Shown piece after piece: positions 57,897-63,644 of a stretch of 64,000 nucleotides of DNA. The stretch is from an uncultured Candidatus Saccharibacteria bacterium. Its GTDB lineage: Bacteria > Patescibacteriota > Andersenbacteria > UBA10190. Within the stretch, counting starts at the first letter, position 1; every line of letters begins with the position of its first letter. The notes under the pieces were generated by a model. The model ran no database searches, was not told the origin of the DNA, and was given only the letters and a program-made list of their open reading frames with translations. The stretch covers positions 588,977 to 652,976 of the forward strand of contig CAZSUC010000001.1 of NCBI GenBank assembly GCA_964610055.1, in the 5' to 3' direction. Both the position numbers and the translations under genes were made by a program.

Positions 57897-59519
57897 TTAT
57901 TCCAACATTCCACCAAACCTTGGCGTCTCGGTCCCTGCATCTAATTTAACTTTCCATTTCCGCGGCAAATATTTTCGCAACACTTCTAACTCCTCACATC
58001 GGAATAACATACATAACCCTAAATAGGCCATTGCCCCGCCTACAAAGGCTCCAACCATCTGTACGCTCACACCCCAAAACCGCGTCATATTCACCCAAGG
58101 CTCAATTGCATACTTTAATCCTTGTACCACCATACCAGCCAATCCGCTCGCCACCGCGATCCTGATCATACTTGCCACCACCGCTTTATCATCAAACCCA
58201 TTCAGTTCTATATGCAGTTTTCCTAGCAATAACACCAAAGTTATAATCGCTGATGCCGAAAAAGCCAAGGCCAATCCTTCCACCCCCATACGCGGCGACA
58301 ACCAAATTGCCAATCCAATATTCGCCGCCATACTAATCAAAGAAATAACAACTGGTGTTGCTGTATTTTGTCTGACATAAAAAGCCCTAATCAACAACGG
58401 AGCGGCTGCTTGAGCAAATAAACTAACCAACAATAGACCTAAAATTGAATACGTCATAATAGTATCATTCCAATCAAACGCCCCATCACCAAACAAAACT
58501 CGCACAATTTGAGCGCGTAATAAATAAGCAAAAGCCGCGGTTGGTACTGTTAAAAAGATAATATAACGAAATGTTCGCGTTAGCGTCATCCGAAAATCTT
58601 TCGCCTGCTTCCGCGCCCATTGTTCGGCTAATGTTGGAAAAGCCGCTTGCGCAAATGCCAATCCAAAAATACCCACCGGTACGCTTTGAATGTTATTCGC
58701 CAAATGAAATGTCGCAATACTGCCAGCCGAAAGAGTCGAGCCAATAATGGTTACTAAAAACAAATTCATTTGTTGGCCTGCCATACCAAACATTCTCGGT
58801 ATAATCATCCGCCGTAAAGTTTTTACGTCTTTTGATTTCCATTTCATAACCGGACGCCACCGCCATCCCAACCGCCAAACACTCGGCAATTGAACTAAAG
58901 CATGCAAAGCTGCTCCTAACACCACCCCCCATCCTAACCCCGCCACTCCTAACCATGGCACCAGCCACACCACACCAACAATAATACCGATGTTGTAAAC
59001 AATCGGAGCCAACGCATACGCCACAAATCGCTTAAATGAATTCAGCACCCCTGAAAACATAAAGCTAATACTCAATAAAATTGGCTGTAATGCCATTATG
59101 CGAGATAAAGTGATCGTCATTTCTAACTTATCTCCCATAAAACCAGGTGTAATTAAAGGCACAATCCAACGCGCCCCTAATGCATATCCTGCGCTCAACA
59201 CTATCACTGTTAACAACACAATATTTAAGACCGACAAAGAGAAGTCAAAGGCCTCCTCATGATTACCTTTTTTACCTTTAACTAATTTCTCCGTAAACAA
59301 CGGAATGAAGGCTGCCGATAAAGCGCCCATCACTACTAAATTAAAAATCAAATCCGGCAAACGGAAAGCTGCAACAAACGCATCAAAAATATCGCCGGCC
59401 CCAAAAGTCGTAGTCATCACCCGTTCCCGTAACAACCCCACGACACGCGACCCTAACGACGCTACCGAGAGCCACAAAGCTGCTGAAATTAATTTTTGTG
59501 TATTGCCGTTCTTAATCAC
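57897..59519 (-). CDS. murJ: Lipid II flippase MurJ (MviN family)
   Basis: LGSRVVGLLRERVMTTTFGAGDIFDAFVAAFRLPDLIFNLVVMGALSAAFIPLF matches the MurJ N-terminus. 540 aa and polytopic. Confidence 0.9.
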   Translation of the reverse strand: MIKNGNTQKLISAALWLSVASLGSRVVGLLRERVMTTTFGAGDIFDAFVAAFRLPDLIFNLVVMGALSAAFIPLFTEKLVKGKKGNHEEAFDFSLSVLNIVLLTVIVLSAGYALGARWIVPLITPGFMGDKLEMTITLSRIMALQPILLSISFMFSGVLNSFKRFVAYALAPIVYNIGIIVGVVWLVPWLGVAGLGWGVVLGAALHALVQLPSVWRLGWRWRPVMKWKSKDVKTLRRMIIPRMFGMAGQQMNLFLVTIIGSTLSAGSIATFHLANNIQSVPVGIFGLAFAQAAFPTLAEQWARKQAKDFRMTLTRTFRYIIFLTVPTAAFAYLLRAQIVRVLFGDGAFDWNDTIMTYSILGLLLVSLFAQAAAPLLIRAFYVRQNTATPVVISLISMAANIGLAIWLSPRMGVEGLALAFSASAIITLVLLLGKLHIELNGFDDKAVVASMIRIAVASGLAGMVVQGLKYAIEPWVNMTRFWGVSVQMVGAFVGGAMAYLGLCMLFRCEELEVLRKYLPRKWKVKLDAGTETPRFGGMLE

Positions 59520-59522
59520 ACC

Positions 59523-61466
59523 TTATTGCCTTTCTAAAACCGCCCCTACCAACACGTCTTGGTTAAGCTCTCCTCGATAAACCAACTCTTGGCTGCTTGT
59601 TGTTGTAATTCCGTCATGAGGGATAGTATGCACAATCCCTATGTTTTCGGGAAGCCGTATTTCTACTCGCACTTCTGTTCGATTATCACCTGGTTGTTTT
59701 ACTACATAAGTTTCGTATCTCTCTGCTGGATCTAACAAATCCGGTAAGTCCGCTGCGCCCGGTAATCGATAGCGGTAAATTCCCACTGTCGTTGCTCCCG
59801 GTTTAGTTATCATCCAATTAGCAAAAAACTTATATCCACTTTCTTGACCAATCACCGTGCCGCTAACATCCGCCACTTGCGCTCGTTGCCATTCCGCTAA
59901 ATCAGGATCAGCCGTTAATTCCTCTGGCAATTCTGGAAAATCATATCGCGGCACATCTGCAGCTTCTGTAAAACCTCGTGCCTCTATTAACTCTGCCTCA
60001 TCCGGTACTAATACTCGCTGCCAAACTACATTATCTTTATACGCTGGGTTTTCGCCATCAGGATATTCACGATCCAATATCTCTTCCGGACCCCGATGCG
60101 TTCGCCTAATCGTAACTGTCACTTCCACATCGCCATTGCTTTGCACATCGCTGCGATAATCAATCTCTTGATCCATAAACTGATCACTCTTATGCCCTCC
60201 AATATTTGTATTATTTACATAAAGCAAGCCTAACTGTTCCTCAGGCAACTCTCCACTCCAATTTAACTCATGTACTCGCGCCTGTTCCTCTGTTCTTGTT
60301 AAATTAACTAATAAACTTTTTTTCTGAATTGCATTATTCATGACATTTAACACATCTAATACTGCTTTCGAATCTTGTGCGAACACTCGATTCAACAAAA
60401 CCGGCGTTAAGTCAGCCAAAAATTGTTTCGGCCGATTAACTTCTTTATCGTAATCATATGTCACCTCGTCTTGAGTTAGCGCAATGAAGTTATCCTCATC
60501 CACCGTCACGTTATAAGTTGGCATTTCAATTGGACCAGTAATCGCTAACAAATCTTGAATAATCTCTGGAGTAATTGCAATGACTCCATCCACCTTTGAT
60601 CCACCCTCCTTTTCCCAAAACGACTGAATTTTCTCTGCACTTAAGTCAAAATCAACAAACCAATTAGCATCTCGTAAGTACCATCTATCCGTAATTCCTC
60701 GCATCGGATCAGGTGGTGCAATATATTCTTTTAATTGTCCGTCCGGATCATATACTGTTTGCACATCTACTTCTTCCACCTGACCTCGACTAACATTTAC
60801 CACTCCTAGACTTCCAATAAATCCACCTGTTGGCCGCAATTCATGATTGTTTTGAAACACTAACAAATAACGTCGATCTTCTTGCGCTCCTAAAACTGAT
60901 AACAATAAATCACTTTGTTCATTGAAAGATTGAATTGATGCTAATAATTCTGGCACTACTTCTTTCAACATTTGCGCAGGCTCTTTTACGGATGCTGGCA
61001 ACAACAAAGTATTAACGCCATTTAAGTTTTCGACTGCGTCTTCCAACGCCGCTTGTGCCACTCCCATATTCTCTTGTGTAATCTCCAGCGCGCCAACCAA
61101 AGTCCTTTCCGACTTTTGATTACTACCGATTACCGACCCACTTGAAGCCATTAAAACAGACAACGCTTCCGTAACTCTCTGCCCTGCCTCAGTTACACTT
61201 TCCGCTGCCGCTAACATATTATCGCCTGAACGGACTGTGCCTGTAACATCTAAAGTTTCTAGAACTAATCGCGATGCTGATAAAGCATCCCGCAGTTGCT
61301 CTCGCGCTTCCATCAATTGCTCCTTGGCGTTAGCAAAATTTTCACTCCCAGTTTCAAAATCGCTTTGCGATACCGCCGCCTGCGCAGCTGCCACTTCATT
61401 CAAAGCCTCTTTCGTGCGTCTAATAATTGGGCCAATTGCAACATACCCTCGACCCAAAGCTTGCAA
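59523..61466 (-). CDS. DUF4012 domain protein (as annotated from TTG 61466; probably lacks its true N-terminus)
   Basis: YLLVFQNNHELRPTGGFIGSLGVVNV is the DUF4012 hallmark. The frame stays open upstream to 61547 and encodes a TM helix (LVSNALILIIGCGIGWLAL) with no canonical start codon. Confidence 0.8.
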   Translation of the reverse strand: MQALGRGYVAIGPIIRRTKEALNEVAAAQAAVSQSDFETGSENFANAKEQLMEAREQLRDALSASRLVLETLDVTGTVRSGDNMLAAAESVTEAGQRVTEALSVLMASSGSVIGSNQKSERTLVGALEITQENMGVAQAALEDAVENLNGVNTLLLPASVKEPAQMLKEVVPELLASIQSFNEQSDLLLSVLGAQEDRRYLLVFQNNHELRPTGGFIGSLGVVNVSRGQVEEVDVQTVYDPDGQLKEYIAPPDPMRGITDRWYLRDANWFVDFDLSAEKIQSFWEKEGGSKVDGVIAITPEIIQDLLAITGPIEMPTYNVTVDEDNFIALTQDEVTYDYDKEVNRPKQFLADLTPVLLNRVFAQDSKAVLDVLNVMNNAIQKKSLLVNLTRTEEQARVHELNWSGELPEEQLGLLYVNNTNIGGHKSDQFMDQEIDYRSDVQSNGDVEVTVTIRRTHRGPEEILDREYPDGENPAYKDNVVWQRVLVPDEAELIEARGFTEAADVPRYDFPELPEELTADPDLAEWQRAQVADVSGTVIGQESGYKFFANWMITKPGATTVGIYRYRLPGAADLPDLLDPAERYETYVVKQPGDNRTEVRVEIRLPENIGIVHTIPHDGITTTSSQELVYRGELNQDVLVGAVLERQ

Positions 61467-61525
61467 ATTTTGTAACGCTAACCAACCAATCCCACATCCA
61501 ATAATTAGGATCAGGGCATTAGAAA

Positions 61526-62218
61526 CTAATCGACGTACAGTTTTTTTTTACGCCAAGCCTCCTTTAACGCTTCTGTTAACTCTATGTCTTGTCCGGCTTT
61601 TGCCGGAACAATATTTTTCGGAAAAATACTAAAGTGCAGAGGTAAGGCAAACCGACGCTTAGGCGGTTGGATTGCATTTTGCTCATTTACTTTAATCTCT
61701 GCTCCGTCAGGTTTTTGCTTTTTGTCTTCCCATTCATACGGCATATCTCGCTCTTTTGTAATCAGTACCTTAACCGGCTTTGGTTGCATCATTTTTGTTT
61801 TATTGGTTCCTCGGGCTGGAGGAGTCATTCTTTTCGATTGCGCCAACATGTTTCCATACGGCGGCAACATTACACTCGCCCCCGGCTTATTCTCTCGCCA
61901 TACATCGCCAGTATGTTGTTCTACTCCTCGTTTCGGTTTCGGCGTTCGCCGCATAGAATATAGAGGATACTTTGAAGGTAATTCAGAATATAAAGGTCTC
62001 CGCTCAAATTGAATAATTGCTTGCTGTTGTCGCCTCTTGCGTCTTTGTCTTTCTAATTCATATCGTACTGGGCGGCGCAAACGTGCTGGCAATTTCCAAT
62101 CAAACTGCACAACTGGCGGCTGCGGTTTAGCCGCTTTCTTCGGTACTCGCCGTGTCTTTCCGTGCGCAATTTTTCGCTCCGGTCTTAACGGTTTTTTTGG
62201 AGGAACTACATCGTACAC
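61526..62218 (-). CDS. Basic, Pro/Lys/Arg-rich protein (230 aa); probable N-terminal part of the DUF4012 protein
   Basis: MYDVVPPKKPLRPERK... is low-complexity and basic. It ends ...RKKKLYVD* directly after an A9 run (T9 at 61541-61549 on the + strand). A -1 shift there continues into the DUF4012 frame. Confidence 0.6.
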   Translation of the reverse strand: MYDVVPPKKPLRPERKIAHGKTRRVPKKAAKPQPPVVQFDWKLPARLRRPVRYELERQRRKRRQQQAIIQFERRPLYSELPSKYPLYSMRRTPKPKRGVEQHTGDVWRENKPGASVMLPPYGNMLAQSKRMTPPARGTNKTKMMQPKPVKVLITKERDMPYEWEDKKQKPDGAEIKVNEQNAIQPPKRRFALPLHFSIFPKNIVPAKAGQDIELTEALKEAWRKKKLYVD

Positions 62219-62252
62219 ACGCTTATTATATCATCATGCTACACTATAACCA

Positions 62253-63644
62253 ATGTCACAGTTTCTCCCTCTTGGTCAGCATGATCTACCACCCGCCCTA
62301 TCTTTCCGCCGCTTGATTGGCCCCAGCTTTATTATCTTAGGTCTCGGCTTAGGTAGCGGCGAGGTCATTCTTTGGCCTTATCTTTCTAGTAACTATGGTC
62401 TCGGTATTGTTTGGGCTATTGTCGTCGGTATTACCATGCAGTTTTTCATCAACTTAGAAGTCGAACGATACGCTTTAATTTATGGTGAAAGCATTTTTGT
62501 CGGTTTCGCACGCATGCTGCGTTATCTTCCCGCCTGGTTTATTCTCACCACCTTCTTTGGTTTCGGCTGGCCCGGTATCGGTTTAGCCGGCGCAACTTTA
62601 CTTGCTCATGCTTTCGGTATTTCTAATGTAAACATCGCGGCCATCGCCATCTTTCTCCTTATCGGACTTATCTTGTCTTTTGGACGCGTTCTTTACCAAA
62701 CCGTTGAAAATATTCAAAAATGGCTGATCGGCTTAGGTGTCCCGGCAATTATTCTGCTCACTCTTTACCTATCTTCTCGAGCTGACTTTGTTGTTCTCGC
62801 CCAAGGTTTAATTGGCCACGGTCACAATTTTTGGTTCTTACCCGACGGCTTAGCAATTGCTGCTTTTTTAGGCGCTCTGGCTTTCTCTGGGGCAGGCGGA
62901 AATCTTAATCTGGCTCAATCTTTTTACGTGCGCGACAAAGGTTACGGCATGGGAAAATATTCTGCACGAATTACTAATCTGCTCCACGAAAATCAAGATG
63001 ACGCTCACTTTCACCTCACCGGCTCCACTTTCCCTCTGTCTTCTTCTAACCTCAGTCGCTTTCATCGTTGGTGGCGCATCATGAATCTCGAACACTTTTT
63101 AATTTTTTGGGTTCTCGGTTTGATTACAATGTTAACCCTAGCTTTATTAGCTTACGTCACCGCTTACGGCACACCTGGCAATGAGCAAAATATTACTTTC
63201 GTTCTCAATGAAGCCACTGCCATCAGCCAACTCACTCTTCCTGTTATCAGCCTGTTATTCCTGATCATAACTGGCATCATGCTTTCCGCCACCCAGATGA
63301 CTGTGCTTGATTCCACTAGTCGTATCATCGCCGAAAATTGGCTGCTCTTTACGCGCAAAGCTAAAGGCAAAATGGCACACCTGTATTATTTTATTCTTTG
63401 GGCTCAAATCGCTTTTGGAATCCTGGTTTTCCTGGCTGGATTTAACGAACCGAAACAATTAATTATTACTTCCGCTGTCATTAATGCTTTCACCATGTTT
63501 ATTTACACCGGACTTTTACTTTGGTTAAATAATAGTCGCTTGCCTCAACCTCTTAAACCTCGTGCCTGGCGCAATGTCGCTCTCGCTATTACTTTTCTCT
63601 TTTTCGGTGTTTTCTGCGTTTTGTATCTCATTGATAAATTTTAA
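62253..63644 (+). CDS. Nramp-related polytopic transporter
   Basis: 463 aa with about 11 TM helices. The N-terminal GLGLGSGEVILWPYLSSNYGLGIVWAIVVGITMQFFINLEVERYALIYGESI parallels the first Nramp/MntH segments, although the canonical DPGN is absent. Confidence 0.6.
   Translation: MSQFLPLGQHDLPPALSFRRLIGPSFIILGLGLGSGEVILWPYLSSNYGLGIVWAIVVGITMQFFINLEVERYALIYGESIFVGFARMLRYLPAWFILTTFFGFGWPGIGLAGATLLAHAFGISNVNIAAIAIFLLIGLILSFGRVLYQTVENIQKWLIGLGVPAIILLTLYLSSRADFVVLAQGLIGHGHNFWFLPDGLAIAAFLGALAFSGAGGNLNLAQSFYVRDKGYGMGKYSARITNLLHENQDDAHFHLTGSTFPLSSSNLSRFHRWWRIMNLEHFLIFWVLGLITMLTLALLAYVTAYGTPGNEQNITFVLNEATAISQLTLPVISLLFLIITGIMLSATQMTVLDSTSRIIAENWLLFTRKAKGKMAHLYYFILWAQIAFGILVFLAGFNEPKQLIITSAVINAFTMFIYTGLLLWLNNSRLPQPLKPRAWRNVALAITFLFFGVFCVLYLIDKF

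Follow-up and report, generated by a model that had tools for sequence, protein, structure and literature searches.

The 64,000-nucleotide stretch of DNA analysed here (the window) comes from contig CAZSUC010000001.1 of an uncultured Candidatus Saccharibacteria bacterium, which GTDB places in Andersenbacteria. In it a run of nine adenines, A9, separates a basic open reading frame (ORF) of 230 amino acids (aa) from the reading frame of a DUF4012 protein. Comparison with orthologs makes it very likely that both ORFs belong to a single gene, which contains a programmed recoding site irrespective of the mechanism, and transcriptional slippage is probably the main mechanism. RNA polymerase on the T9 template (mRNA U-A9) would slip and add an extra A in a fraction of the transcripts. 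The unslipped A9 mRNA would yield a 230-aa basic cytoplasmic protein with a stop 4 codons past the run, and the A10 mRNA an 898-aa protein with a cytoplasmic tail, a transmembrane (TM) helix and external DUF4012 domains. In lineages that carry the run in frame the full-length protein would be the default product and slippage would lead to the short form. The family would use the run to set the ratio of the two isoforms. We infer the transcriptional slip, the production of both isoforms and their use from sequence comparison.

Coordinates of the locus refer to the minus strand unless marked (+). The N-terminal ORF (61526..62218) starts with GTG and encodes a basic, Pro/Arg/Lys-rich product that is predicted to be disordered. 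Its 0 frame crosses the run as K K K and ends with the stop codon TAG at 61528-61526. A9 is located at 61549-61541 (T9 on the + strand) with T 61550 directly 5' of it, and the window reads GAG GCT TGG CGT AAA AAA AAA CTG TAC GTC GAT TAG. The candidate slippage element 5'-T AAAAAAAAA C T-3', proposed on the basis of sequence and conservation, occupies 61539..61550. Past the run the 0-frame tail L Y V D stop (61526..61540) closes the short isoform after four codons. The TM + DUF4012 reading frame (59523..61547, 674 codons) is closed by a TAA at 61550-61548, which is made up of T 61550 and the first two A's of the run, and is open from there to its stop at 59525-59523. It encodes KKTVRRLVSNALILIIGCGIGWLALQN ahead of the TTG at 61466 that was called as the start. 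This part contains the TM helix LVSNALILIIGCGIGWLAL (61473..61529) with a Kyte-Doolittle (KD) hydropathy of 2.08 over 17 residues. The codons of the helix are in the -1 frame and overlap the TAG that ends the N-terminal ORF. It has no in-frame start upstream, and not a single ATG, GTG or TTG occurs in the DUF4012 frame between the run and the end of the hydrophobic helix. The 647-aa product of the gene caller, which begins at TTG 61466, is thereby deprived of the TM helix. The DUF4012 (PF13196) match lies at 60465..60881 (residues 223-361 of the 674-aa frame) with an E-value of 8.2e-34 and 117.6 bits versus a Pfam cut-off of 28. The 230-aa ORF had no Pfam match; judged from its sequence it would be the cytoplasmic part of the protein.

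Addition of one A at the run resulted in a continuous fusion of 898 aa in silico, and a -1 shift is equivalent. An earlier note on this DNA had described the A9/T9 run, the 230-aa basic ORF with its ending and the DUF4012 frame, and all were found in the window sequence at the positions it gave. Its claims that a -1 shift or one additional A joins both ORFs and restores the TM helix, and that the stretch before the helix lacks a start codon, were borne out as well.

Orthologs were sampled by a protein search with the fused sequence and from GTDB species representatives, JGI metagenomes and fetched contigs. The protein search assigned the organism to Candidatus Andersenbacteria of the Candidate Phyla Radiation (CPR). 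According to this search many Andersenbacteria orthologs are single ORFs of 800-960 aa, which cover 96-100% of the fusion. They share the order of parts of the window: the N-terminal region is basic, rich in Pro/Arg/Lys and marked by short conserved motifs, and a TM helix and DUF4012 follow. One gene is thus the usual state. The architecture that the earlier note had given as usual for the family, a basic tail, a TM helix and DUF4012, holds for this subfamily, and every ortholog possesses an equivalent helix. With about 650 aa the closest relatives (52-70% identity) all resembled the called DUF4012 protein of the window in length. Four of their contigs were fetched. Each contained an upstream ORF of 195-265 aa, which ended 4-12 codons past an exact T+A9, and a DUF4012 frame that opened at the run in the -1 phase.

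In total, the gene is split at the DNA level in 11 lineages, i.e. the window, L003, L004, L005, L006, L012, L014, L017, L023, L039 and L060, which are mutually divergent with roughly 45-70% aa identity. T+A9 was present in 11/11. All eleven need one additional A, equal to a -1 shift, and none needs the removal of an A; under random direction such agreement has a probability of 0.5^11. With T+A9 found again at this junction in 10 divergent lineages besides the window, chance is far from sufficient to account for the arrangement. When the 230-aa ORF served as query, 29 more stand-alone N-terminal proteins of 159-289 aa were retrieved, and every one of them ended with KKK plus 0-13 residues (e.g. 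KKKL, KKKR, KKKLRES, KKKVQNSDFLTS). This search gave only stand-alone forms, although fused orthologs carry similar N-domains, and the 230-aa protein was in turn missing from the matches of the fusion. Both protein searches preselect candidates by words; this introduces a bias, and the counts of split versus fused forms are no census. About 30 orthologous loci without the run were all single ORFs, and a split locus without the run was not encountered among the sampled orthologous loci.

The 0 frame stops 1-18 codons past the run in all 11 split loci, and the third frame after 1-20 codons. The 0-frame tails are not conserved among these loci. On the other side of the run the N-terminal ORFs retain the motifs M.DVVPP, WKLPARLRRP, FERR, HTGD, PPY, ERD.PY and LPLHFS as well as the in-frame orthologs do. 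The codons of the TM helix stay open and hydrophobic in the -1 frame, and in 10 of the 11 lineages no canonical start precedes the helix core. Judged by these sequences, both halves are intact and motif-bearing in all split lineages. The earlier note had held that orthologs which are also split and have independent start codons would speak against its proposal. Splits do occur, but at the same A9 and, in 10/11 lineages, with no start before the TM helix. Because of these two properties the ortholog splits argue for recoding.

Nine further lineages carry the run in frame at the equivalent site as A9 or A10, which encodes KKK directly ahead of the TM helix. Four are GTDB single-ORF lineages, with T+A9 in L008, L016 and L037 and T+A10 in L007. 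For the other five a pure A-run was predicted in advance from the KKK of fused proteins, and 5/5 contigs confirmed the prediction with T+A9 in L087, L088 and L090 and A10 in L086 and L089. In the six in-frame lineages at A9 stops in the other frames follow within 1-17 codons. The retention of the same A-run by in-frame orthologs points to a two-isoform site, more than to mere repair of a frameshift. In a neighbor-joining tree of the region from the TM helix to the C-terminus all run-bearing lineages fell into one large clade, in which split and in-frame states were interleaved with at least three switches. L007, in frame with A10, was the sister of L060, which is split at A9, and the run has disappeared from one nested subclade.

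Over the 20 run-bearing lineages the run length was A9 in 17 and A10 in 3 (L007, L086, L089); none had eight and none had at least eleven A's. Lys is encoded by AAA at 28-78% in these genes. The chance of AAA AAA AAA in all 20 lineages was calculated as ~1e-15, and that of T at position -1 in 19/20 lineages as ~1e-11; both figures treat the lineages, which are deep but related, as independent and are overstated, which weakens our case to that extent. Synonymous sites are saturated at 45-55% protein identity. The only conserved positions were T(-1), the run and T(+2), the latter in 16/20, while the flanking 15 nucleotides (nt) on each side carried 0-0.7 bits in the 20 lineages. T(-1) is the wobble base of eight different codons, and T(+2) is maintained across different reading frames; a decoding role is not evident for either. 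T(-1) might contribute a weak rU:dA pair where the RNA:DNA hybrid ends upstream. Runs of at least nine were found 30 times in 710 kb of fetched Andersenbacteria-type loci, and 22 of the 30 are this site.

Runs of at least nine in distant loci (L010, L041, L077, L078, L083, L084) were in frame inside long ORFs or intergenic. Examples are an A9/T9 in frame in a distant DUF4012 gene near its GGFIG motif (L084, 3526), two A9/T9 runs at 856 and 1804 of L077, both in frame in one 477-codon ORF, and a T9 in a neighboring gene of an Andersenbacteria metagenome-assembled genome (MAG; L010 653 / L058 153). None of these examples breaks a long ORF.

The split of the gene might be without function, i.e. 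a homopolymer error of sequencing or assembly, a recent frameshift pseudogene, or two independent genes, one for a small basic protein and one for a DUF4012 protein that would begin at TTG 61466. No homopolymer of the 64-kb window exceeds A9, five A8/T8 runs come next, and gene callers and NCBI list two proteins. Yet none of the five A8/T8 runs interrupts the ORF in which it is located (341-963 codons), which shows that this assembly is not prone to homopolymer frameshifts. Independent assemblies of SRR8925775 and SRR8925805 (L001, L002) contained the identical A9 and the identical 230-aa ORF, and the same A9 recurred in 10 other lineages, the assemblies of which stem from different groups and programs. 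Moreover, an error model is unable to yield both the out-of-frame and the in-frame class of A9. Sequencing error was rejected on these three grounds, and a pseudogene on the intact, motif-bearing halves of every split lineage. An independent DUF4012 start was rejected as well, since ATG, GTG and TTG are absent before the TM helix in 10/11 split lineages; the TM-helix codons are open and hydrophobic upstream of any start codon, and a product from 61466 would miss the helix found in every ortholog. Because motifs are kept, TM codons are open, starts are missing, tails are unconserved and the off-frames close quickly, we consider an error, a pseudogene or two genes extremely improbable. Of the options that the earlier note had listed, slippage, be it ribosomal or transcriptional, was upheld by the comparative data, while a sequencing or assembly error and a frameshift pseudogene were not.

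Phase variation at the DNA level would mean that the tract gains or loses an A in replication, with the surface protein ON at A10 and OFF at A9, and that assemblies show the majority state. Homopolymer tracts in genes of surface or envelope proteins are a classic substrate for this process, and A10 is indeed found in three in-frame lineages. As A10 L007 is the sister of A9 L060, changes between A9 and A10 do occur over evolutionary time. Nevertheless, we regard phase variation as improbable. The tract length is nearly invariant with no value other than nine or ten, and out-of-frame loci have A9 without exception; the second OFF length that a single step could produce does not occur among them. 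In six lineages A9 itself is in frame, which indicates that the frame was changed elsewhere and the tract length kept. One state was shared within 8/8 groups of close relatives or repeat assemblies (window/L001/L002; L016/L061; P0146/148/150; P0131/135; P0124/126/127; P0130/137/140; P0133/139; P0123/149), as judged by consensus sequences, in which minority alleles are not visible. An 898-aa (A10) variant of the window protein was absent from the protein collection searched.

If recoding takes place on the ribosome, the mRNA would be a faithful A9 copy and ribosomes on AAA AAA in the 0 frame would slip back by one base at A AAA AAA with tandem re-pairing of tRNA-Lys. An X XXY YYZ heptamer is in phase in 11/11 split loci, with the classical A AAA AAG in L017, and the shift required in split loci is always -1. 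A Shine-Dalgarno-like (SD-like) heptamer, AAGGAGG, is positioned 8 nt 5' of the run in the window (61558..61564), and L005 has GGAGGAG; a similar arrangement is known from E. coli dnaX (PMC5009743). The AAGGAGG could stimulate -1 ribosomal frameshifting in the window genome. The 5' SD is, however, not conserved, as beyond the window only L005 has a comparable one. A 3' stimulatory structure was not apparent either: in 15 lineages the minimum free energy of nt +3..+62 was the same as that of shuffled sequences (z -1.4 to +0.9), and Rfam had no match, i.e. no frameshift element, in 61200-61800. Without stimulators -1 shifting at A AAA AAA is usually inefficient, as seen with dnaX and insertion sequence (IS) systems. 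Furthermore, conservation spans 10-12 nt (T, the whole A9 and T+2) and thus exceeds the 7 nt needed by a ribosome, no split lineage has a run below nine or a K1 codon other than AAA, and in-frame lineages hold A9 or A10 though they require no frameshift. Taken together, -1 ribosomal frameshifting appears unlikely as the main mechanism, yet it may act together with transcriptional slippage. tRNA genes were not found in the 64-kb window.

Transcriptional slippage is favored by the same properties of the site. The conserved element has 10-12 nt as against 7 nt for a ribosomal site, and less than nine A's do not occur in a split lineage. T+A9 amounts to 10 nt of weak pairs and thereby equals the RNA:DNA hybrid (9-10 bp) in size. 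With nine A/T a run is long enough for efficient slippage of bacterial RNA polymerase in vivo, and such a run is used in Thermus dnaX (PMC5009743). Insertions predominate at A/T runs (PMC5574713), which matches the invariable need for an additional A. The lack of ribosomal stimulators, whether 3' structure, Rfam element or conserved 5' SD, argues in the same direction, as does the retention of the run by in-frame lineages with close stops in both other frames, the layout of Thermus dnaX. Regarding RNA structure, the 45 nt upstream of the run fell into the lowest decile of same-gene control windows, i.e. were more structured, in 9/20 lineages (Fisher p 3e-4). Stable hairpins ended 0-2 nt from the run in about half of the lineages, among them those at 2078-2122 in L017, 4790-4834 in L037, 4745-4789 in L014 and 4185-4229 in L060, which abut it. 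The upstream hairpin may be a lineage-specific stimulator of slippage; hairpin-stimulated slippage is a known phenomenon (reviewed in PMC5009743).

Several points weigh against transcriptional slippage as the explanation of the site. Neither the window (percentile 0.48) nor L003, its closest relative, shares the upstream hairpin that is enriched across lineages. A9 comprises perfect -1 slippery heptamers for the ribosome (A AAA AAA; A AAA AAG in L017), and the AAGGAGG of the window is spaced from the run as in E. coli dnaX. Slippage and ribosomal frameshifting predict an identical junction peptide. The short isoform may simply arise as a side effect when the long one is tuned down. Finally, we know of no measurement of slippage by a CPR RNA polymerase.

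The run is positioned exactly at the boundary of the cytoplasmic domain and the TM helix. Positive charge is favored at the cytoplasmic face of the helix, and the Lys triplet located at this face would also act as a positive-inside signal; this is probably the reason that a slippery run could become established at this point. Going further, we tentatively propose, as a possibility that falls short of being probable, that U-A9-N-U is an ancient, selectively maintained isoform switch, which sets the ratio of a soluble N-domain to the membrane-anchored full-length protein. Its default would have been flipped repeatedly by moves of the frame with the run kept, both isoforms would be needed as for TssM1, and some lineages would tune slippage by a hairpin of the nascent RNA that immediately precedes the run.

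The closest known case appears to be the tssM1/tssM3 pair. In Citrobacter rodentium tssM1 an A11 run precedes a premature stop, and transcriptional slippage gives rise to 20-25% full-length protein (Gueguen et al. 2014, PMC4256274). The two products are both required, and so is the ratio between them (PMC4256274). In tssM3 of Yersinia pseudotuberculosis the run is in frame and slippage leads to a short form (PMC4256274). As in tssM, a poly-A run is situated in the gene of an envelope-spanning protein just before a premature stop, and extra A's would yield the full-length beside the truncated product. Like the two tssM genes, Andersenbacteria display the dual out-of-frame/in-frame configuration. 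Unlike tssM, for which a run of 11 A's in tssM1 and an occurrence in just two tssM genes are known, A9/A10 is found here over dozens of deep lineages. The break precedes the TM helix, so the short form would be soluble and cytoplasmic, and the Andersenbacteria case is known from sequence alone.

In dnaX of Thermus thermophilus tau and gamma are produced by transcriptional slippage at a run of nine (reviewed in PMC5009743). Shared features are the run of nine, close stops in both alternative frames, two products and mostly insertions, and the layout matches L008, L016, L037, L087, L088 and L090. The protein family is a different one, however, and in the window lineage the default product would be the short one. 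With E. coli dnaX, a case of -1 ribosomal frameshifting at A AAA AAG, the site has in common the Lys-codon heptamer, the -1 direction and, in the window, an AAGGAGG at similar distance. In contrast to the 5' SD and 3' stem-loop of that gene, a 3' stem-loop is missing here, the SD is unconserved and the conserved element is longer than a heptamer.

Maintained poly(A) frameshifts, some of them old, are described for Buchnera and Blochmannia as being rescued by polymerase infidelity (cited in PMC5009743; PMC3017870). These are likewise small-genome bacteria, which keep frameshifted genes with poly(A) tracts that permit transcriptional rescue. Yet they are extremely AT-rich with many tracts, whereas GC is 43-55% here, runs of at least nine are rare and concentrated at one site, and in-frame relatives keep the run too. 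Contingency loci of Neisseria, Haemophilus, Campylobacter and Helicobacter resemble the site by a tract in the 5' part of an envelope gene, the length of which sets the frame. They differ from it in that the tract length is nearly invariant here and close relatives share one state. Thus the case is distinct from known ones in phylum, protein family, depth and breadth of conservation, and in the position of the cut between a disordered cytoplasmic domain and a membrane anchor. In a full-text literature search no paper was found that connects transcriptional slippage or programmed frameshifting to CPR, Patescibacteria or Andersenbacteria, and DUF4012 was mentioned in just three papers.

An AlphaFold2 (AF2) model had a mean predicted local distance difference test score (pLDDT) of 70.7. 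Residues 1-222 were disordered (pLDDT <50) save for one short helix. A long helix that includes the TM segment began at about residue 216, a helical bundle spanned 288-442, and an alpha/beta domain and a beta-rich C-terminal domain followed with high confidence. The model also agrees with the architecture given in the earlier note in its succession of a disordered basic N-terminal part, a TM/long helix and folded domains. Foldseek comparison with the PDB resulted in weak matches with E-values of 1e-4 to 1e-3 and TM-scores of 0.37-0.44, which is too weak for an assignment of function. They include the LytR-CpsA-Psr (LCP) structures 3pe5, 3nxh and 3qfi (E 3e-4 to 1e-3, TM-score 0.40-0.44). A Pfam LCP match was absent, and a PDB sequence search with the family profile yielded noise only and no match. 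Topology and gene neighborhood fit LCP proteins; the fold matches are weak.

The conserved neighbors are GT4 glycosyltransferases upstream and MurJ, then LepA, downstream; MurJ is located at 57897-59519 of the window. DUF4012 was noted in an exopolysaccharide/capsular polysaccharide (EPS/CPS) cluster of Bifidobacterium and is enriched in CPR and Gram-positive bacteria (PMC6744442). A factor for assembly or attachment of an envelope glycopolymer is a likely role, while membership in the LCP family is not established. In the lineage of the window a divergently transcribed gene for a multi-pass membrane protein of 463 aa without Pfam match, located at 62253-63644 (+) and also at 198-1589 of L001 and 752-2146 of L003, takes the place of the two GT4 genes found ahead of the DUF4012 gene in most other lineages. 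In L087 (1-847) the upstream GT4 was called as two fragments of 184 and 93 aa, 10 nt apart, which may be another frameshift or a problem of MAG assembly.

At the 5' end of the gene a perfect TATAAT is found at 62225-62230 (-), 6 nt upstream of the GTG start at 62218, and there is no room for a Shine-Dalgarno sequence. The TATAAT adjoining the GTG suggests a leaderless transcript. GTG was the first codon in 15/18 orthologs with a locatable conserved M.DV.PP N-terminus, according to raw translations. A second A-run, A7 (CCA AAA AAA CCG; T7 at 62192-62198 (+)), occupies codons 7-10 of the N-terminal ORF and is in frame.

At present dozens of CPR genomes carry the gene as two entries for hypothetical proteins, and the membrane anchor is missing from the called DUF4012 product; the correct model would very probably be a single recoded gene. 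The reach of programmed slippage would be extended to the Candidate Phyla Radiation and, if true, the case would mark the first description of programmed recoding in CPR/Patescibacteria. One family combines orthologs with out-of-frame A9, with in-frame A9, with in-frame A10 and with no run at all, and the upstream hairpins vary, a series that few studied sites offer. If the proposal is correct, these approximately 50 variants would be a natural series for how sequence context sets the slippage of RNA polymerase. The biological interest resides in a control of dosage or isoforms of a putative envelope-assembly factor, the gene of which sits between GT4 and MurJ, in ultra-small episymbiotic bacteria.

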